Position numbers and translations under genes: made by a program. This document shows, in pieces, positions 5,619 to 42,780 of a DNA stretch of 64,000 nt. The notes beneath the pieces are model-generated. The model did not search any database and was not told where the DNA came from. It saw only the letters and a list, made by a program, of their open reading frames with translations. Numbering within the stretch: position 1 is the stretch's first letter; each line of letters starts with the position of its first letter. Origin of the DNA: an uncultured bacterium (lineage in GTDB: Bacteria; Patescibacteriota; CPR2; UBA1875; CAIMLA01); assembly GCA_903842085.1 (NCBI GenBank), contig CAIMLA010000043.1, positions 1,563 to 65,562 of the forward strand, given 5' to 3'.

Positions 5619-5798
5619 ATGGCAAAATTTAAGGTCAATCAAGAAGTGTGTATTGGTTGTGGAACTTGCGTGAGCTTATGTCCAGATTGTTTTGAACTGA
5701 ATGATGAAGGTAAGTCGCATGTTATTTTAGAAGAATGTGATTGTGACTCCGCTGAAATTGTAAATGACTGTCCGGTTCGAGCTATAACTGTAGAATAA
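5619..5798 (+). CDS. Small 4Fe-4S ferredoxin (59 aa; absent from the ORF track)
   Basis: Hand translation gives MAKFKVNQEVCIGCGTCVSLCPDCFELNDEGKSHVILEECDCDSAEIVNDCPVRAITVE. It has the CxxCxxC...CP cluster motif plus a second Cys group. An AAGGAG RBS lies 7 nt upstream of the ATG. Confidence 0.7.
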   Translation: MAKFKVNQEVCIGCGTCVSLCPDCFELNDEGKSHVILEECDCDSAEIVNDCPVRAITVE

Positions 5799-5799
5799 A

Positions 5800-6480
5800 A
5801 TGGATGATTTTGACGAAAAGACGGGCTCTAATGATAAGATTTGGAAAATAATCACTGCTTTGGCTGTCGTTCTTTTTGTCGTTGCAATAGTCTTTGTCAT
5901 TATCTTTGGTCTTCGGGTTCAAAGTAATAATAAGATAAAAGACCAAGAAATCTCCGCCAATCTTAAAGCTCAGGAAAAGGTCTTAAGAAATGAATTTCTG
6001 CAAGAAACAGAGTCAGATGATATTCAATATACAACCTCTCCTTACTTTGGCAGTCTAAAATTTAGTTATCCAAAAATTTGGTCAACAAATATTGCGATCA
6101 ATGAAGGCTCAGGAGAAGAATTCATCTTTATGGCTGACCCCAACTTGATCGAAATAAATGAAAAAGCTGCCTATACCCCAACTGCGCTTAAAGTAACCAT
6201 CAATAAAGACCGTTATGAGACCGTTTTGAAAAAGCTTGAGGACAAAAATAAAAGCGCCAAAGCGCCGTATAAGTGGACTGAAGCCGATACAGTTGTTTCA
6301 GAAATAAAAGGAAAGGTTTTCTCTGGATTGTACAGCAAGGAGAACCCAAACCGCTATATTATGGTTTTGGTTCCGTATCGAGACAAGACCTTGATCATTA
6401 GCACTGATGGTAGCACCACCGAGGATACCTATAAGAGCCAATTTGAAAAGACCTTAAGCTCATTTGAACTCAGAAAATAA
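5800..6480 (+). CDS. Hypothetical membrane-anchored protein (one N-terminal TM segment; paralog family member A)
   Basis: Hydrophobic segment ALAVVLFVVAIVFVIIFGL. The ectodomain shares motifs with ORFs 19233 and 46396. Confidence 0.6.
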   Translation: MDDFDEKTGSNDKIWKIITALAVVLFVVAIVFVIIFGLRVQSNNKIKDQEISANLKAQEKVLRNEFLQETESDDIQYTTSPYFGSLKFSYPKIWSTNIAINEGSGEEFIFMADPNLIEINEKAAYTPTALKVTINKDRYETVLKKLEDKNKSAKAPYKWTEADTVVSEIKGKVFSGLYSKENPNRYIMVLVPYRDKTLIISTDGSTTEDTYKSQFEKTLSSFELRK

Positions 6481-16492: not shown

Positions 16493-16579
16493 TGGTGCCC
16501 GAGGCGGGACTCGAACCCGCAAGATGTCACCACCAACGGATTTTAAGTCCGTCGCGTATACCAATTCCGCCACCCGGGC
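16493..16579 (-). tRNA. tRNA-Leu (anticodon UAA)
   Basis: Reverse-complement folds as a cloverleaf with anticodon loop cuUAAaa, a long variable arm and an encoded 3' CCA. Confidence 0.85.
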
Positions 16580-16624
16580 ATTAGATTTAAGCAAAACCAA
16601 ACGAATCAGGAAGCCCCATCAATC

Positions 16625-16699
16625 TGGAGGCCTCGCCCGGAATTGAACCGGGGTGAACGGTTTTGCAGACCGCTGCGTAAACCACTCCGCCACGAGGCC
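16625..16699 (-). tRNA. tRNA-Cys (anticodon GCA)
   Basis: Reverse-complement is ggcctcgtggcggagtgg...cuGCAaa...ggttcaattcc...cca. Confidence 0.85.
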
Positions 16700-16706
16700 A
16701 TTTATA

Positions 16707-16782
16707 TGGAGCGAGAGACGGGGCTCGAACCCGCGACCTCAACCTTGGCAAGGTTGCGCTCTACCAGCTAAGCTACTCTCGC
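16707..16782 (-). tRNA. tRNA-Gly (anticodon GCC)
   Basis: Reverse-complement is gcgagagtagcttagctggtagagc...ttGCCaa...ggttcgagcc...cca. Confidence 0.85.
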
Positions 16783-16819
16783 AAACACACGTGGACTAGA
16801 TTACGTCGAGATTGATTTA

Positions 16820-16895
<76 letters not shown>

Positions 16896-16963
16896 TTATT
16901 TTCTTTTTCTTCTTACTAAGATTCTTCTGGCGATAAATAACGTCCAGATCAATCTTGGTAAAA

Positions 16964-17040
16964 TGGTGGGCGATGGGGGATTCGAACCCGCGACCTCCTC
17001 GGTGTAAACGAGATGCTCTAACCAGCTGAGCTAATCGCCC
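16964..17040 (-). tRNA. tRNA-Val (anticodon UAC)
   Basis: Reverse-complement is gggcgattagctcagctggttagagc...ttUACac...ggttcgaatcc...cca. Confidence 0.85.
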
Positions 17041-17077
17041 CGATATCAATGTTCAATTGACTCGTATCCCTTAACTT

Positions 17078-17164
17078 TGGTGCGGACGAGAGGACTTGAA
17101 CCTCCAAGACCTTTCGGTCACTAGCACCTCATGCTAGCGCGTATACCAATTCCGCCACGTCCGC
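17078..17164 (-). tRNA. tRNA-Leu (anticodon GAG)
   Basis: Reverse-complement is gcggacgtggcggaattggta...atGAGgt, with a long variable arm, ...ggttcaagtcc...cca. Confidence 0.85.
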
Positions 17165-23760: not shown

Positions 23761-23767
23761 GAGGAGC

Positions 23768-24526
23768 ATGGGGAGAGCACAGAAATTAAAAGAACAAAGG
23801 AAAATTGAAAAAGCGAAAAATCTTGAACGAAAGAAAAGAAGAAAAGTCCTTTTGTTCAGAGGGATCGCGATAACGGCTGGGCTAGTCATTGTTGGCAGTC
23901 TAGGATTTTACGGTGTGGCTTTGGCCAAAAATCGCTGGTTTAGTAATAATAAAGTTTCACAAGGAGAGGATCTCAAAGTGGATAAAGTAAAAAATAGCAA
24001 TAAGACCTATGCCAAAGCCCCAGAGATGAAGATTGATCCTAGTAAAAAATATATTGCTAAGATTGATACTAACAAGGGGAGCTTTGAGGCTGAATTAGAC
24101 GCAAAAAATGTTCCGATTACAGTCAATAATTTTGTTTCTCTATCAAAGGATAAGTTTTATGACGGCTTATCTTTTCACCGGATCGTTAAAGATTTTATGA
24201 TCCAGGGAGGGGATCCAAAAGGGGATGGCACTGGAGGGCCGGGGTATAAATTTAATGACGAACCAATCGTCGGCGATTACACCCCAGGGACTTTAGCAAT
24301 GGCAAACTCTGGTCAAAATTCAAACGGTTCGCAATTTTTTGTGATGACAGGAGATTATTCGAGCGGGAAACTCCCTAAAAATTATGTTATTTTTGGTAAA
24401 GTCATTTCTGGTATGGACGTAGTCCAGAAAATTGGCGCAACTCCAACGACAAATGGTGGTCAGGGAGAGCAATCAAAACCAACCGAAGTCGTTACGATTA
24501 ATAATATTACGATTGAGGAAAAATAA
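23768..24526 (+). CDS. ppiB: Cyclophilin-type peptidyl-prolyl cis-trans isomerase, membrane-anchored
   Basis: FHRIVKDFMIQGGDPKGDGTGGPGYKF is the cyclophilin core. The start was moved to ATG 23768, downstream of an AGGAGG RBS; the track's 23696 start overlaps gatA. Confidence 0.85.
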   Translation: MGRAQKLKEQRKIEKAKNLERKKRRKVLLFRGIAITAGLVIVGSLGFYGVALAKNRWFSNNKVSQGEDLKVDKVKNSNKTYAKAPEMKIDPSKKYIAKIDTNKGSFEAELDAKNVPITVNNFVSLSKDKFYDGLSFHRIVKDFMIQGGDPKGDGTGGPGYKFNDEPIVGDYTPGTLAMANSGQNSNGSQFFVMTGDYSSGKLPKNYVIFGKVISGMDVVQKIGATPTTNGGQGEQSKPTEVVTINNITIEEK

Positions 24527-37087: not shown

Positions 37088-38023
37088 ATGAATACTTTGT
37101 TTGTCTTTATCGCGATAACTCTCGTAGTTATGGCCATTATCTTTGAACTTATTGAGCGGGTAGCTAAGCTTTCTATGCGCAGTTTTTTTATTGTATTATC
37201 AGCGGCGTTTGTTGGGCTTGTGATGGGAGCCTTATTGACCCTTCCTCTTAGCAAAACACCTGGCTATTTAGGTGAATGGTTACCTCTCGTTTTTACAGTC
37301 TTATTAGTTTTTGGTTTTGTCACTTTTTTTTGGCGGCAGAAGGAGGCAGTCAACAAATGGTTTGATGCCATCAATAAATCTCTGTCAGTCCTAAAAAACG
37401 TTGGCGCTCAAACACACCCGCAAAACAGTGTGGCGGTTGTTGATACTTCAGTTTTAATTGATGGTCGCATCTCTGACATCATTCGGACTGGGTTTTGGTT
37501 CTACAAAATAATAATACCTAGATTTATTTTGGCAGAGTTACAAACAATTGCTGATTCAACTGATTCAGATCGAAGAGCTAAAGGTCGAAGAGGGCTTGAT
37601 ATTATTGGGACCTTACGCAAAAGCAAGGAAGTAAAAGTAGAAATTAGCAATCTCGATTTTCCAGAAATTGGCGAGGTTGATGCAAAACTAGTGGCGATAG
37701 CAAAAAAACAGAATTTATTATTGTTAACGACTGATTTTAACCTAAATAAAGTTGCCAAGGCCGAGGGACTGAAGGTTTTAAATATTAATGAGCTTGCTCA
37801 AGGATTACGGCCAGTAATCTTGCCGGGCGAAGAATTAGAATTAAAGCTCGTTCATTTGGGTAAAGAAAAAAGCCAAGGAGTCGGGTACCTTCCTGACGGC
37901 ACTATGATTGTTGTTGAAAGGGGAGGAAGTCTCATTGATAAAACAGTTAAGGTTAAAATTACCAGAACTCTCCAAACGGCAGCTGGTAAAATGTTTTTTT
38001 CAAAGATAGTCGATGCTAAATAA
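37088..38023 (+). CDS. PIN and TRAM domain protein (YacL-like), membrane-anchored
   Basis: N-terminal TM segments, PIN motif VVDTSVLIDGRI...LLLLTTDFNL and a C-terminal TRAM beta-barrel. It is conserved next to clpC in Firmicutes. Confidence 0.8.
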   Translation: MNTLFVFIAITLVVMAIIFELIERVAKLSMRSFFIVLSAAFVGLVMGALLTLPLSKTPGYLGEWLPLVFTVLLVFGFVTFFWRQKEAVNKWFDAINKSLSVLKNVGAQTHPQNSVAVVDTSVLIDGRISDIIRTGFWFYKIIIPRFILAELQTIADSTDSDRRAKGRRGLDIIGTLRKSKEVKVEISNLDFPEIGEVDAKLVAIAKKQNLLLLTTDFNLNKVAKAEGLKVLNINELAQGLRPVILPGEELELKLVHLGKEKSQGVGYLPDGTMIVVERGGSLIDKTVKVKITRTLQTAAGKMFFSKIVDAK

Positions 38024-38912
38024 TTTACAAAAAAGCGTAACTCTCGCACCCTATACGACTTATAGAATTGGAGGTAACGCTGATTATTTTTTTGTCGCAA
38101 AAACAAAAGAAGCCTTAATCGAGGCTTTGGCGTGGGCGAGCAAGGAGGGGATAGCTTATGTCATAATCGGCGGGGGAAGCAATCTTTTAATCTCAGACGC
38201 AGGTTTCCGTGGCTTAGTTATATTAAATCGATCAAATAAATACTCAATATCTGATGGTCTGGTGATATCAGAGAGTGGGATGATTTTATCAACCCTGGCT
38301 CGAAAAACAGTTGATTTAAGTTTAAGTAATTTGGATTTTGCGATGAATATTCCGGGTACCGTTGGCGGAGCGGTTGTTGGTAATGCGGGAGCTTACGGTA
38401 AAGAAATCTCTAATTCCTTAGATTCAGCCCTGGTTTGGTCTGCCAAAGAAGGACTAAAAAAACATCTGAAGGAGGATTTAGGGTTTGCTTATCGATCGTC
38501 GACCTTAAAAAACAACCATGAATCGGTTTTAATCGAAGCCGAATTTCAAATGCAAAAAGAAGATAAGGAGCTGATGCTTGAAAAAGCTAAAAGCGATTTA
38601 GAAAAAAGAAAACATGACTATCAAGGTTTATCCTGTGGTAGCTATTTCAAAAACCCAATCAATAAAAAAATAAATTTAAACAAAGAAACGATTGATAACC
38701 CCTCAGCTGGATTATTAATTGATAGTTTAGGCTTAAAAGGGCTCTCTGTTGGTGGAGCGAGTGTTAGTAAATATCATGCTAATGTTATCGTCAATAAAAA
38801 CAAAGCAACTGCAAAAGATATTATAAATCTTGAGAAATTAATTATTAAAAAAGTGAAAGAGAGATATGATATCGAGCTACAATCAGAGGTGACAAAAATA
38901 GGTATAGTTTAG
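38013..38912 (+). CDS. murB: UDP-N-acetylenolpyruvoylglucosamine reductase
   Basis: LAPYTTYRIGGNADYFF and FAD-binding GGGSN motifs. It overlaps the upstream gene by 11 nt. Confidence 0.85.
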   Translation: MLNNLQKSVTLAPYTTYRIGGNADYFFVAKTKEALIEALAWASKEGIAYVIIGGGSNLLISDAGFRGLVILNRSNKYSISDGLVISESGMILSTLARKTVDLSLSNLDFAMNIPGTVGGAVVGNAGAYGKEISNSLDSALVWSAKEGLKKHLKEDLGFAYRSSTLKNNHESVLIEAEFQMQKEDKELMLEKAKSDLEKRKHDYQGLSCGSYFKNPINKKINLNKETIDNPSAGLLIDSLGLKGLSVGGASVSKYHANVIVNKNKATAKDIINLEKLIIKKVKERYDIELQSEVTKIGIV

Positions 38913-39026
38913 TAATTTTATTTATCTTGGAAACAAAAAGGGTGCCGATTGGCACTCTCTATTTATTGTTACTAAATATTTTTCATTAGAGTTATGACAA
39001 AGCAAGGTTGGTAAAGTATGTTGGGA

Positions 39027-39059
39027 GGGCGGAGCGCACAGAATGTGTGCACTCCGCCC
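39027..39059. repeat. GC-rich 14-bp inverted repeat (gggcggagcgcaca-gaat-gtgtgcactccgccc) at the edge of the high-GC island
   Basis: 13 of 14 positions pair. It lies about 20 nt beyond the stop of the minus-strand high-GC ORF. No adjacent U-tract. Confidence 0.5.
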
Positions 39060-39078
39060 AATGTGCGCGTTTTAAAGG

Positions 39079-39624
39079 CTAGGCCTTGGCGCGAGCCCGC
39101 TTCTTGGCGTTTTTGGTTTTGCCCCCGGCGGGGGCCGGCTTGGCCCCGCTGGACCCCTTCTCAGGGCCGGCCGTCGATGTGGCGAGCTTCCTCGCCCTCT
39201 GGGCGGCTTTTCGAGCCTCCAGAGTTTGGGGGTCGGCTTTGGCCCGCTGTGGCCGATTCAGGTTCCGGAGAACCCGAACGGCTTCAGCAAGAAAGAGGGG
39301 ATTGAGGTACCTCTCGGCACTCTCGACCCCGTGTTCCCGACAGAGGTAAAATGCTACCTCTGCGAGGAACCGTCTTGTCTGATTGAATTCTCCGTCCAAA
39401 ATCGCGGTTTTCACCGCGGAAAAATGGACGTGGTAAGCTTTCAAAGCCATGACTCGTCTCGACACCGAGTCGATCTTGACTCGGCCCTGGTTGGATATGA
39501 AGACCAACCAGCTTTCGAGGCAGCCCATCAGGGCCTCCTCAGAGTCGATGTTGAGTGCCGTTTCGAACTCCTGGTAACGCTGGGCATTCGGCCCAACGGT
39601 TATGGTGATGACGACGTCCGACAT
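39079..39624 (-). CDS. Hypothetical protein of apparent foreign (high-GC) origin with Lys/Ala/Pro-rich basic C-terminal tail
   Basis: 181-aa ORF with an ATG start and an AAGGAG SD 5 nt upstream. GC3 is about 75 percent by hand count, against an AT-rich host. The C-terminus PEKGSSGAKPAPAGGKTKNAKKRARAKA resembles H1/AlgP-like basic tails. The N-terminal domain is unrecognised. Confidence 0.6.
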   Translation of the reverse strand: MSDVVITITVGPNAQRYQEFETALNIDSEEALMGCLESWLVFISNQGRVKIDSVSRRVMALKAYHVHFSAVKTAILDGEFNQTRRFLAEVAFYLCREHGVESAERYLNPLFLAEAVRVLRNLNRPQRAKADPQTLEARKAAQRARKLATSTAGPEKGSSGAKPAPAGGKTKNAKKRARAKA

Positions 39625-39779
39625 CTCGACTCCTTTTGCGTGGTTTTAAGAACAAAAATATACTTTAAGGCTTTTAGAACACTACTATTTTGCAATAGAG
39701 TGACTTTAGCCTAGGATAACCTTGCTTTGTCAATGAGCTTTGGTACTTCGAAAAAGTTTAACTCTCTCGAACAGCGAAT

Positions 39780-39809
39780 ATAATAGCATAAACAGAGCTA
39801 ATAGTCAAG
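39780..39809 (-). promoter_or_regulatory. Sigma70-like promoter (TTGACT-17-TATTAT) on the minus strand, about 150 nt upstream of the high-GC ORF
   Basis: Minus-strand reading is TTGACTattagctctgtttatgcTATTAT. Confidence 0.35.
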
Positions 39810-40173
39810 TGTTTTGTGGAGACTAATTGAGAAGATATATTGCAGATAAAACAAGAAGCCGCTCGATTGACATATTCGCGAAAACACATCTCACTTGCGG
39901 CTCCAACTATAGTTTAACAACACGCCTAATTTTAGGCAGCTTGTTGTATTCAGCTATAGTCCCTCCTTTGCTAAGCCTTCAAAATACAGACTGAGTCCGT
40001 AGCTCTATTAACGCACTAGATAGCTTCTTTTATTCACTATCTAATTTGTCATAGTCGAGCGCGTAGCTCAAGCCTTGGCATCTGTATCTCTCCAGTTTAA
40101 CCGGGAGGGAGAAAAAATCGTCTTTGTGATTATTTCTCTCTCACGATTAAAGGTAAAATCATTATAACATCTT

Positions 40174-42780
40174 TTATTTTACTGTCACAGTAACATTGCT
40201 GCTAGCAGTTTGTCCAATCTTATCGGTGACTGTTGCGATAATATCAGCTGAAGCCCCTGATGGTTTATCAAAAGTTGCGACATAATTAGTCCCGTCTAGA
40301 GTTGCTTCTTTGGATTGACTGCCAATTTTGATCGTCACAGATTGAACCCCATTTGGAGCAGTTATCGTCACACTAACACTATACGGTGTCGCGAAATCGT
40401 CACTCGCTTTTAGGGTCGTAAAAGATATTGTCGGGGCGCCTTGGTTAATTGGACAGGTATCCTGGCCAATTTGTTCTGATCCAGAAGTTGAATAACCGCT
40501 ACTTGCTGTCCAAGCTCCGATCGGAGCAAACCATCTGCCATAAGAGGCATCGGTCGAAGGAATCTCGGCCGTGACGACGTTGATCGTTCTCGTCTCAATT
40601 TGAGCTGGGTCTGGAGGACAACTGTTGTTAACAAGTTTACCTGAAAGTTTATTAATTTTAAGTTCTGTAGCGGCCACAGCGTCTTGAATATTATACCAAG
40701 ATGGGAAAATATCTGTTACCGTTTTGCTCCCAGCGACTGGTTTTTTACCGGTGACGGCGTCTAGAGTCACCGTTTTTATCCCACTGGGTCTGGTAAATTG
40801 TTCATTGGGAGTCCCGTTGAGGGCGTTAATCATATAATCGTGCCAAATTGGGGCAGCCGCAATCGAACCACCGGCTTTTGTCATGGGGGTTCCATCATTA
40901 TTACCAGCCCAAACGCCTGTTACTAAGCTTGGGGTGTAACCAAGCGTCCAAGCGTCTTTGTAATCATTGGTAGTTCCGGTTTTGGCGGCGACTGGGCGAC
41001 CATGGAGCGTTAGGGGGCCACCGGTACCAAAGACATCTGCTCGGGCGTAATCATCAGATAAAACATTGCTTATCAGATATGTAATTTGTGAATCTAAGAC
41101 TTTTTTACCAGCATTTTCTTTGTATTCATCAATTGTTTTTCCTTTCGCGTCTTCAACTTTAATATACCAACTTGGGTCTTGTTTGACGCCACTATTAGCA
41201 AAAACCCCATAAGCATTGACCATATCTAAAAGCTTAACCTCTCCAGCGCCCAAGACAAGGGATAGGCCGTAAAGGCTTTTATCGTTTAAAGTTGTAATCC
41301 CCATTGCGTGGACGGTATCGATAACGTTATCAAGGCCAGCGATATAAAGTGTTTTTACCGCTGGGATATTGAGTGAGTTTTGCAAGGCGCTTCTCATCGT
41401 GACCGGTCCGCGAAATCGGCCATCATAATTACTGGGCACATAACCGCCGCCAAAATCAGTCTTTAGATCAAAGAGCACACTTCCAGGACCCCAATTATTT
41501 AACTTCCAAGCAGTTGCATAGGCAAAAGGTTTGAAAGAGGAACCAGGCTGACGATCCATAACCGCAACATTGACATTGCCATCTATATCAGGATTAAAGA
41601 AATCACGACTGCCAACCATGGCCAAGATTTGACCAGTTTTCGGATCCATCGAAACTAAGGATGCATTTGAGGCATTGTAAGCAGTCCGATTTTTGTCAAC
41701 GTTGGTTGCAACTGCCTCCTCGGCATATTGCTGTTTCGTGATATCTAAAGTGGTATAAACCTTTAAACCGCCTTCATTGACCAGTTTTTCACCGTATTTT
41801 TCGACTAGTTTTTCTTTGACATACATTACAAAGTGAGGTGCCGTGATGGAGCCATAAGGATTTTGCGAGAAGGCAACTTCTTTTTTCATGGCAGCTTCAG
41901 CATCCTTGGTCGTAATAAATTTTTGAGCGGCCATATCTTTTAAGACTTGATCTTTTCTTTTTAAGAGCAAAGCTTTATTTGTCCCGTAAGGAGAATAATA
42001 AGTTGGAGCTTGAGGCAGGGCGGCCAAGGTCGAACATTCTTCTAAACTTAAATCTTTTAAATCTTTATTAAAATAAGTTTTTGCGGCAACTTTAATCCCA
42101 TAAGCATTAGAGCCATATGGAATTTCATTGAGATACATTTTTAAAATATCGTCTTTCTTGTACATCTGTTCTATTTCGATTGAAAGGATGATCTCTTTAA
42201 TCTTGCGAGAATAAGACCTCTCGGTTGTTAGGAGGGCGTTCCGTACAAATTGTTGGGTGATTGTTGAGCCACCGCCTTTGGTGCGATCACCAGTAATAAT
42301 ACCGGAAAAAGCTCTGGCAATACCGCGGACACTAAAACCACTGTGCTTATAAAAATCTTTGTCCTCAATCGCGATCGTGGCATTTTTACAATTTTGAGGA
42401 ATCTCATCCCAGCCAGCCATGAGCCGATTTTTGTCGCCGTGGATCTCATAGAGAAGTTTTCCGTTTCGATCAAAAATCTGAGTCGATTGAGCCGAAATAC
42501 GAGCATTTATTTTGTTTGGAGTTGGTAAATCCTTGGCATACCAGGCAAAAACACCAAAGAGGAGGCCCAGAAAAACTACGGTAACGAGGCCGATTTTCTT
42601 CCAACCACTTTTTGTCGTAAAAAGTGACTTTAATGATTCTTTAAAGCCTGAGAAATTTAAATTCTTAAAGGAGAATCCCTTTTTTTGTCGAGACCGAACG
42701 GCTGTCTTGGCAGAACGAGGACGCGAAAAAGTTCGATAACTTTGTCTTGAGCGTCGCTTTCTCGGTTTATATAAAGGCAT
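40174..42780 (-). CDS. Bifunctional class A penicillin-binding protein (PBP1A-type) with extra C-terminal beta-rich domain
   Basis: N-terminal TM segment, GT51 motifs (EDKDFYKHSG, GGSTITQQ, RKIKE), transpeptidase SxxK (SSFKP), SLN and KTGT. About 150 extra C-terminal residues are Thr/Ser/Val-rich. Confidence 0.9.
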   Translation of the reverse strand: MPLYKPRKRRSRQSYRTFSRPRSAKTAVRSRQKKGFSFKNLNFSGFKESLKSLFTTKSGWKKIGLVTVVFLGLLFGVFAWYAKDLPTPNKINARISAQSTQIFDRNGKLLYEIHGDKNRLMAGWDEIPQNCKNATIAIEDKDFYKHSGFSVRGIARAFSGIITGDRTKGGGSTITQQFVRNALLTTERSYSRKIKEIILSIEIEQMYKKDDILKMYLNEIPYGSNAYGIKVAAKTYFNKDLKDLSLEECSTLAALPQAPTYYSPYGTNKALLLKRKDQVLKDMAAQKFITTKDAEAAMKKEVAFSQNPYGSITAPHFVMYVKEKLVEKYGEKLVNEGGLKVYTTLDITKQQYAEEAVATNVDKNRTAYNASNASLVSMDPKTGQILAMVGSRDFFNPDIDGNVNVAVMDRQPGSSFKPFAYATAWKLNNWGPGSVLFDLKTDFGGGYVPSNYDGRFRGPVTMRSALQNSLNIPAVKTLYIAGLDNVIDTVHAMGITTLNDKSLYGLSLVLGAGEVKLLDMVNAYGVFANSGVKQDPSWYIKVEDAKGKTIDEYKENAGKKVLDSQITYLISNVLSDDYARADVFGTGGPLTLHGRPVAAKTGTTNDYKDAWTLGYTPSLVTGVWAGNNDGTPMTKAGGSIAAAPIWHDYMINALNGTPNEQFTRPSGIKTVTLDAVTGKKPVAGSKTVTDIFPSWYNIQDAVAATELKINKLSGKLVNNSCPPDPAQIETRTINVVTAEIPSTDASYGRWFAPIGAWTASSGYSTSGSEQIGQDTCPINQGAPTISFTTLKASDDFATPYSVSVTITAPNGVQSVTIKIGSQSKEATLDGTNYVATFDKPSGASADIIATVTDKIGQTASSNVTVTVK

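Follow-up and report, generated by a model that had tools for sequence, protein, structure and literature searches.

A Candidate Structured RNA Gene and a Self-Contained High-GC Cassette in the Spacer behind a Patescibacterial PBP1A Gene

Introduction

Patescibacteria are mostly uncultured, poorly understood episymbionts with tiny genomes that contain very little non-coding DNA. Complex-folded bacterial RNAs of more than 200 nucleotides (nt) and of unknown function are rare, and several of them have proved to be ribozymes or unusual assemblies. Another described arrangement is that of the type I small RNA (sRNA) genes, which derive from 3′ untranslated regions (3′ UTRs) and possess an internal promoter, e.g., the enterobacterial DapZ and MicL; RNAs of this type are Hfq-dependent, act by base pairing, and are conserved mainly in a short seed and in the terminator. 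In this article, we discuss a spacer of 549 bp (positions 39625–40173) in a 64,000-nt stretch of DNA from an uncultured member of the Patescibacteriota (contig CAIMLA010000043.1; the whole stretch is referred to as “the window”). The spacer lies between the stop codon of a PBP1A gene and the ATG of an open reading frame (ORF) of 181 amino acids (aa), ORF181, and is compared with homologous loci on other contigs, designated L002 to L032.

We consider it probable, with considerable confidence, that this spacer comprises two independent units on the minus strand—a gene for a non-coding RNA (ncRNA) and the front part of an ORF181 cassette—and not one long leader. The predicted RNA of ~305 nt is a well-supported candidate for a previously undescribed structured family of a Patescibacteria clade. 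This RNA family is what is new here; of secondary interest is the cassette, which is unusual in that its UTRs are conserved and complementary to each other. Unless stated otherwise, all features described below are located on the minus strand.

Conservation and Distribution of the RNA Block

In the 11.8-kb block that is syntenic with L002, mean identity to that locus is 74%, and the only 100-nt intervals with at least 90% identity (range 90–93%) fall within 40113–39864, i.e., inside the spacer, the coding flanks of which are 55–80% identical. The block follows PBP1A in L002, L021, L022, L023, L024, L026, L029, L030/31 and L032, the PBP1A proteins of which are 63–83% identical to that of the window. 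These are all nine relatives examined, and six of the nine are without a high-GC gene. The PBP1A loci that were fetched are L021 (77% identity), L022 (76%), L023 (71%), L024 (69%), L030/31 (66%) and L032 (63%); L026 and L029 were added via a pattern scan. The PBP1A homologues, among which are entries named Patescibacteria group, WS5 and Howlettbacteria, assign the organism to the Patescibacteria. In all of these loci, the gap after PBP1A measures 330–580 bp and harbours an ncRNA-like block, of which nhmmer detected one copy per locus (E 1e-53 to 1e-87 for complete copies; 2e-44 for the L026 copy, truncated at the end of its contig); the window contained no further copy.

Importantly for the independence of the block, L023, L024, L029, L030/31 and L032 contain no cargo ORF behind it. 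There, the next gene is convergent, encoding a DNA glycosylase (Pur_DNA_glyco) in four loci and an uncharacterised 225-aa ORF in L029. Since the block is present in these relatives without the high-GC gene, about 60% of the spacer (40188–39846) is independent of ORF181.

A metagenome scan for the pattern GCCAAGGCT-N(25-50)-TGAATAAAAGAAGC yielded four true loci only; a match in L028 was rejected as a chance occurrence inside a coding region. Neither the ncRNA nor ORF181 nor the ORF123 family (see below) had a copy in viral contig scans or phage GenBank searches. A MurB scan of species-representative genome contigs returned only matches of 30–40% from unrelated phyla, the clade being absent from the representatives. 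In the public record of L032, a 79-aa gene is placed exactly over the ncRNA homologue (5671–5910); this ORF is probably a spurious call.

Fold and Covariation of the RNA

The minus strand of the block folds with a minimum free energy of −100.8 kcal/mol (z −5.1), compared with −82.6 (z −3.6) for the plus strand. In a MAFFT alignment of nine sequences, which was not fitted to structure, RNAalifold predicted 81 pairs; compensatory double changes are seen in 40. A curated model of 76 pairs is paired in 93.4% of its cells, versus 35–48% when the 3′ partners are slid by 1–3 columns, and 42 of the 76 pairs are changed on both sides, versus 9–14 upon sliding; not one of 500 shuffles reached any observed covariation measure. 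As G·U cells (118) far exceed A·C cells (10), the minus strand is the RNA strand; on the opposite strand, pairing would fall to 77%. The block thus displays the compensatory changes on one strand that characterise a stand-alone structured ncRNA.

These data also bear on the idea that the conserved block encodes a small protein or is a DNA element for attachment, replication or partition. It is true that variable cargo inserts directly after the block, as it does at att sites; however, the compensatory changes are strand-asymmetric, promoter and terminator motifs bracket the block exactly, and no reading frame is kept open in it across the lineages. A mini-ORF with a Shine–Dalgarno (SD) sequence inside the ncRNA (MPRLELRARL) was rejected, as it has no AUG and lies in a different frame in relatives. 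We give this idea hardly any weight.

The ncRNA of ~305 nt (39846..40153) extends from just after the −10 element to the U-tail, with conservation, fold and covariation in its support. Its 5′ part forms P1 (helix 1), in which 40150–40139 (UUAAUCGUGAGA) pair with 40108–40097 (CCUCCCGGUUAA); 93% of its cells are paired and three pairs are changed on both sides. P1 is capped by a variable extension hairpin (40138–40109), and its 3′ strand UCUCCCGGUUAA is nearly invariant. Then follows a central domain (39983..40088; helices 2–5; 13 pairs changed on both sides), composed of P2 (40088–40080 with 39991–39983), P3 (40070–40065 with 39998–39992), P4 (40060–40057 with 40005–40002) and P4b (40051–40048 with 40012–40009). 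Between P2 and P3, there is the unpaired, near-invariant decamer UGCCAAGGCU (40080–40071), which is identical in all lineages but L032 and contains the invariant columns T74–A78, G80–G81 and T83.

The central domain encloses the hairpin P5 (helix 6; 40016..40044), seven of the nine pairs of which are changed on both sides and the 11-nt loop of which, GAAUAAAAGAA (40035–40025), is nearly invariant; its stem is the inverted repeat tagatag/ctatcta (40017–40053) to which an earlier note on this DNA had drawn attention. Downstream, the conserved SD-like segment GCAAAGGAG contains GGAGG (39966–39962). CUCCC in the 3′ strand of P1 and GGAGR could form a long-range helix (53–57 with 201–205) that is 96% paired, with two pairs changed on both sides, including a C>U change in L002 matched by G>A. 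This CUCCC:GGAG pairing could be a pseudoknot or an alternative fold; a covariation scan for further pseudoknots revealed nothing convincing beyond CUCC:GGAG.

The 3′ part consists of two long hairpins. P6 (39961–39905; helices 7–9; 11 pairs changed on both sides) is built from three segments with an apical CUGCCyAAAAkyAGGC, and P7 (39904–39855; helices 10–11; eight pairs changed on both sides), spanning GGAGCCGC...GCGGCUUC, is followed by UUGUUUUAU up to 39846. The P7 tip GUUUUCGCGAAU (39885–39874) is identical in eight of the nine aligned RNAs and holds the palindrome ttcgcgaa (39876–39883), also mentioned in the earlier note. A kissing-loop reading of the palindrome UUCGCGAA was not supported, the palindrome being the tip of the P7 hairpin; in L032, the tip differs and is likewise a plain hairpin end.

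Putative Promoter and Terminator of the RNA

At the upstream boundary, there is a putative promoter (40161..40188) that the earlier note had not mentioned and that scores better than the one it had reported: −35 GTGACA (40188–40183), a 16-nt spacer and the TG-extended −10 TGTTATAAT ending at 40161, with 11 of 12 positions of GTGACA-16-TATAAT agreeing with the consensus. The final codons of PBP1A, including its stop codon, overlap with this motif. In 8 of 10 lineages, a −10 of the TGnTATAAT type is found at the corresponding position, 7–12 nt ahead of P1; the variants are TGCATAAT in L032 and TATACT in L024. The density of such motifs is elevated in the area, with 8 promoter-like sites in the 1.6-kb region versus 2.2 ± 1.4 in shuffles. 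At the downstream boundary, P7 and its U-tract have the appearance of an intrinsic terminator, which a consensus terminator scan missed because the P7 loop is long. Promoter and terminator motifs are thus present and conserved, and, since promoter, fold and terminator bracket it, one RNA of ~305 nt is predicted.

According to this reading, the first unit (40188–39846) would be a stand-alone gene for a multi-helix RNA. Transcription would start a few bases ahead of P1, from the extended −10 in the last PBP1A codons; the transcript would fold into about seven helices, P1–P7, with the near-invariant loops UGCCAAGGCU, GAAUAAAAGAA, GCAAAGGAG and GUUUUCGCGAAC; and transcription would stop at the long P7 hairpin and its U-tract. 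P7 probably also ends PBP1A read-through, as there is no other terminator-like site between the PBP1A stop codon and P7.

The last point leads to the main competing explanation, in which the block is a cis-acting 3′ UTR of the PBP1A mRNA, serving stability, localisation or translational feedback and ending at the PBP1A terminator. The block always follows PBP1A directly, in L024 even starting at the stop codon itself, and read-through from PBP1A is to be expected because no terminator-like site intervenes before P7. Against this, nearly all lineages have the TG-extended −10 at a distance of 7–12 nt upstream of P1, which speaks for an internal start, and some seven helices with invariant loops far exceed the needs of known 3′ UTR stability elements. 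We regard a pure 3′ UTR function as unlikely. Type I 3′ UTR sRNAs do both, and hence the readings as ncRNA gene and as 3′ UTR are not mutually exclusive; the layout of this type is indeed found here, with −35 and −10 overlapping the PBP1A stop codon and no terminator-like site before P7.

Returning to the stand-alone gene, we infer that the ncRNA is made, is stable and acts in trans, in a structural or protein-bound form, instead of being a cis regulator. Our best guess is a lineage-specific ribonucleoprotein (RNP) or structural RNA, arranged like a 3′-UTR-type sRNA gene with an internal promoter. A riboswitch or 5′ leader has a different layout: the gene next to the ncRNA is convergent in L023, L024, L029, L030/31 and L032, and the putative terminator always ends the RNA.

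Relation to Known RNA Families

At gathering score, Rfam 15 detected only tRNAs in the window. RNase P, SRP, 6S, tmRNA, raiA, OLE, ROOL, GOLLD, riboswitch and leader families were all below the gathering threshold for the ncRNA. Relaxing the search to E ≤ 10 for the spacer or the ncRNA alone returned only spurious microRNA and sRNA hairpins of 15–17 bits, and at E ≤ 1, the ncRNA had no match in five homologous loci. ARAGORN found seven tRNAs in the window and no tmRNA. In the literature on ncRNAs of Patescibacteria, on RNase P and on Howlettbacteria, no description of this RNA was found.

Could the ncRNA nonetheless be a highly divergent member of a known family (RNase P, SRP, 6S, tmRNA, raiA, OLE or others) that escaped the covariance models? 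Its length of ~300 nt is in the size range of RNase P RNA, tmRNA and large SRP RNA, the window contains no other non-tRNA RNA, and Patescibacteria are divergent. On the other hand, there are the negative Rfam and ARAGORN results just given, and on inspection by eye against the consensus sequences, none of the CR-I/CR-V motif of RNase P, the domain IV motif of SRP RNA and a tRNA-like end was recognised. Furthermore, as the window covers only 64 kb, the universal RNA genes are expected elsewhere. We consider a divergent known family very unlikely.

The ORF181 Cassette

The second unit would start at the promoter TTGACT-17-TATTAT (39780..39808), with TTGACT at 39808–39803, a 17-nt spacer and the TG-extended TATTAT at 39785–39780. 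Both hexamers are invariant in four lineages (window, L002, L008, L010). Consensus (10 of 12 positions), spacing and conservation in orthologous loci are those expected of a sigma-70 promoter, and the motif is kept in every ORF181-bearing lineage. From here, a 5′ leader of ~150 nt (39625..39779), conserved in window, L002, L010 and L008, would lead to ORF181, with the SD sequence AAGGAG (39635–39630) 5 nt ahead of its ATG.

Folding the leader gave two hairpins. In hairpin 1 (39771–39747), all changes are exchanges among G·U, A-U and G-C. Hairpin 2 (39712–39668) has a GNRA-capped inner stem (39698–39685), in which a C-G pair is compensated to U-A and the loop change from GAAA to GCAA retains the GNRA type. 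Between them is the left arm of an inverted repeat, UGACAAAGCAAGGUU (39732–39718), and behind hairpin 2 is the segment UAAAGUAU (39667–39660). On the whole, the leader is far better conserved than the ORF181 N-terminus, even where the latter is ~75% diverged.

ORF181 itself (39079..39624) has 59% GC and a GC content at third codon positions (GC3) of 0.72, and its product consists of a helical N-domain and a conserved basic C-terminal tail. Its 3′ UTR (38934..39078; 88% mean identity across five loci) contains a GC-rich 14-bp hairpin (39059–39027) with compensatory changes in L010. There follow the segment AUACUUUA (39019–39012), the 8-nt partner of the leader segment UAAAGUAU, and the right repeat arm AACCUUGCUUUGUCA (39009–38995), a perfect 15-nt complement of the left arm. 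A putative bidirectional terminator common to ORF181 and murB (38958–38934) concludes the unit.

Both 15-nt arms are 100% identical in window, L002, L008 and L010, the 8-nt pair extends the helix around hairpin 2, and the predicted fold of the whole mRNA closes with a stalk (z = −8.8). We read the 15 + 8-nt complementarity as a possible end-to-end stalk of the mRNA for stability or processing: the complementary segments of leader and 3′ UTR would zip the mRNA ends together around the ORF, and the stalk may stabilise the ORF181 mRNA or act as a processing site.

Alternatively, the 15-nt repeats may function at the DNA level: they may delimit a small mobile cassette as its terminal repeats, be the targets of a recombinase in an invertible gene switch, or constitute a pair of operators. 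Invariance of the arms in four lineages without covariation suits sequence-specific recognition by a protein, each arm contains an inward-facing hexamer (TTGACA/ATGACA), and the slot is variable, with many metagenome contigs breaking nearby and an unrelated flank upstream of the −35 in L004. Yet conservation extends outside the arms, to the promoter and hairpin 1 on one side and to the terminator on the other; ten loci have the same orientation and synteny; the flanks that were fetched (up to 10 kb) contain no called recombinase or transposase; the repeat is present in single copy in the window; and the additional complementarity of 8 nt, set apart by hairpin 2, would suit a three-way junction in RNA. 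The hallmarks of an insertion sequence or a miniature inverted-repeat transposable element (MITE) are therefore not seen (conservation beyond both arms, single copy, constant synteny, no transposase called nearby), nor are those of an invertible switch (one orientation in ten loci, no recombinase called in the fetched flanks). We consider a role on DNA rather unlikely, and continue with the RNA stalk.

An Orphan Gene with Maintained High GC

The codon-level pattern shows ORF181 to be a real protein-coding orphan gene. Between lineages, the C-terminal 70 codons diverge by 0.07–0.20, 0.07–0.17 and 0.35–0.51 at positions 1, 2 and 3, respectively; this C-terminal part is under strong purifying selection, and the N-terminal 110 aa are fast-evolving. 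GC3 amounts to 0.72–0.84 in all ORF181 lineages (including L002, L008, L009 and L010), compared with 0.37 for PBP1A. Because GC3 stays high despite heavy synonymous divergence (40–50% of the synonymous sites), the high GC is maintained and is not the fading trace of a transfer.

ORF181 homologues make up only six clusters among 5.8 billion proteins, and a profile search of 1.84 billion representatives gave only 10 matches, all of them orphans. The gene order PBP1A, ~555-bp spacer, ORF181 and convergent murB is found in every contig long enough to show the neighbourhood, for ORF181 homologues at 71–73% as well as at 43–47% identity; ORF181 is thus not a strain-specific insert. Pfam, NCBIfam and PHROGs contain no family for ORF181. 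In its AlphaFold model, the helical N-domain reaches a predicted local distance difference test (pLDDT) score of 80–90 and the tail is disordered; a Foldseek search of the model against PDB returned nothing significant (best E 0.23).

Several observations on the family deserve mention. The remote homologues are singletons on contigs of 0.9–5.5 kb, four of the six on contigs of ~0.9–1.2 kb. The basic C-terminal tail motif (RKLATSTAGPEKGSS...GGKTKNAKKRARAKA; ORF181 residues ~115–181) is nearly invariant (P0127–P0133) and is also present at the C-terminus of P0133, an otherwise unrelated protein of 429 aa. The tail might be a targeting or nucleic-acid-binding module.

A Variable Slot behind the RNA

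ORF181 is not the only cargo of this site. L021 and L022 have small ORFs of another, unrelated family here (107 and 123 aa), preceded by a promoter, a hairpin 1 and a GUACC that are nearly those of the ORF181 cassette; the cargo is clearly GC-elevated in L021 (57–58% GC). The alternative cargo corresponds to L021 6490–6945, versus L029 5435–5480, and to L022 7906–8535. ORF123 has a weak match to phrog_2978 (unknown function; E 4e-6), which is the only phage link. L029, the ncRNA of which is near-identical to that of L021, lacks a 455-bp block that in L021 contains promoter, leader hairpin, ORF107 and a GC-rich hairpin. As the insertion in L021 relative to L029 includes the promoter, the latter is part of the cassette. 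Together with leader, ORF and GC-rich hairpin, it behaves as a self-contained unit in a variable slot directly after the ncRNA terminator. Neither integrase or transposase genes nor a duplicated att site were noted at the slot within the fetched flanks (up to 10 kb).

L004 shares an identical ORF181 with L002, yet the 135 nt (1–135) that adjoin the cassette −35 on its upstream side are unrelated. Contigs break in or beside the spacer at the starts of L005, L008, L009, L010 and L011 and at the end of L026. Together, the contig breaks and the L004 flank suggest that strains differ, or that rearrangements have occurred, at this junction. Between the ncRNA terminator and the next feature, L022 (7906–8140) and L024 (7895–7960) contain an additional AT-rich stretch in which GTCTGTAAAGT / GTCTATAAAGT-like words recur; even without cargo, the region 3′ of the RNA varies.

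Two Probable Units in One Spacer

From the window alone, the earlier note had described the spacer as an unusually long, AT-rich, non-coding gap with signals that wire a foreign gene to host-like expression. Length and coding capacity are as it stated: the 549 bp are the longest non-tRNA gap of the window, where the median intergenic gap is 43 bp on a crude ORF map, and the longest ORFs in the gap (plus strand, 55 aa; minus strand, 43 aa) stay below the 60 aa it had named. A GC content of 37.7%, versus 40.3% for the window, is not notably AT-rich for this genome; the impression arises because the neighbouring ORF181 has 59% GC. Of the checks proposed there, the Rfam search, the folding of the leader and the comparison with related PBP1A junctions were carried out, the latter revealing a constant ncRNA followed by varying cargo.

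Pushed furthest, the earlier view would make the whole spacer one long regulatory region or leader wiring a recently acquired gene to host signals. The promoter at 39808–39780, just as the earlier note had it, aims at ORF181 with a ~150-nt leader and a good SD sequence, this leader being conserved and structured, and ORF181 does stand out with its 59% GC in a window of 40% GC. However, the upstream 60% of the spacer (40188–39846) is kept after PBP1A in genomes without the high-GC gene—the very finding that the earlier note had named as contrary to its proposal—and has promoter and terminator motifs of its own. That ORF181 is foreign is doubtful, given its synteny down to 43–47% identity and the high GC3 that is kept despite saturated synonymous change; and capture by host signals is doubtful as well, with the promoter of the sister cassette lying inside the inserted unit (L021 versus L029). 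What holds of the earlier proposal is that promoter and leader serve ORF181, along with its fallback of an unrecognised ncRNA or regulatory leader, both of which the spacer contains. A single long leader is, in our view, highly improbable.

The division into an ncRNA gene and a cassette front has to be weighed against several points. Promoter motifs, start sites and terminators are read from sequence only. The covariation is based on nine sequences, representing about seven independent lineages of one clade. Inner P1 and the CUCCC:GGAG helix compete for the same bases, and both show compensatory changes. That the ncRNA is a universal RNA in strongly diverged form is unlikely, with the comparison confined to the fetched loci. 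Finally, since neither repeat arm varies, the arms provide no covariation proof of RNA pairing, and a role on DNA fits them equally well.

Neighbouring Features of the Window

The PBP1A gene (40174–42780) encodes Pfam Transgly and Transpeptidase domains; its product has a strongly basic N-terminal extension of ~40 aa (MPLYKPRKRRSRQSYRTFSRPRSAKTAVRSRQKK...; 42661–42780) ahead of the membrane anchor. On the other side, murB (38013–38912, plus strand) converges on ORF181. The longest non-coding stretch of the window, exceeding the spacer, is a cluster of six tRNA genes (Leu, Cys, Gly, Phe, Val, Leu; 16493–17164). A seeming gap of 766 bp (23761–24526) was rejected as intergenic, as a cyclophilin-type gene is located there.

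Implications

In tiny genomes with little non-coding DNA, the ncRNA is kept more conserved than ClpB, RecG or PBP1A and is, therefore, likely important to its host. Clear boundaries, a well-supported fold and invariant loops make it directly testable. The slot behind it illustrates how a single gene of high GC, equipped with a promoter and conserved UTRs of its own, enters a reduced low-GC genome and remains there, and the maintained high GC challenges the assumption that atypical GC indicates recent transfer. In annotation, neither this spacer nor its counterparts in relatives should be treated as a single long leader.

A far-reaching variant would unite both units in one functional system: the ncRNA would be a new complex-folded class—a ribozyme or RNP scaffold—confined to a Patescibacteria clade, and its 3′ end would dock persistently high-GC single-gene cassettes, the mRNAs of which are zipped via their invariant UTR segments and processed, possibly by excision or circularisation, to a stable RNA. 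We consider this speculative and rather improbable.

Comparison with Known Systems

With regard to the slot, the locus resembles tRNA/tmRNA island landmarks in that variable, foreign-looking cargo is located directly 3′ of an ncRNA and close relatives differ in its presence. Unlike in such islands, the cargo is one gene of 0.45–0.9 kb with its own promoter, and neither an integrase nor a duplicated att half-site was found. Different single ORFs of atypical GC in one slot, each followed by a GC-rich inverted repeat, are reminiscent of integron cassettes; in contrast to integrons, however, the promoter is inside the inserted unit, there is one cassette only, attI/attC architecture and IntI are lacking, and no integrase was called in the fetched flanks. 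The cassette mRNA is comparable to the RNase III stalks flanking rRNAs, as conserved complementary segments would form a helix of 15 + 8 bp enclosing the RNA. Unlike rRNA processing stalks, the predicted stalk encloses the mRNA of a 181-aa protein and its arms are without covariation.

The ncRNA shares with raiA motif RNA, OLE, ROOL and GOLLD (PMC11109978, PMC12286853) a size above 200 nt, many covarying helices and invariant loops, a predicted stand-alone arrangement with promoter and terminator motifs of its own, and the restriction to one lineage. It differs from them by the absence of a sequence or structure match in Rfam 15 and by its occurrence in Patescibacteria, fixed to the 3′ end of PBP1A; compared with OLE, ROOL and GOLLD, it is also smaller. 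With the type I 3′ UTR sRNAs, it has in common a putative promoter in the last codons of the upstream coding sequence and a terminator common to the upstream mRNA, and its length is similar to that of MicL (~300 nt); unlike those sRNAs, it combines about seven helices that covary with a number of invariant loops. Neither a seed or target nor a partner protein was identified, no search aimed at targets having been made. By genomic anatomy, it comes closest to the 3′-UTR-type sRNA genes with an internal promoter and, in complexity, to the large structured RNAs classed as orphans.

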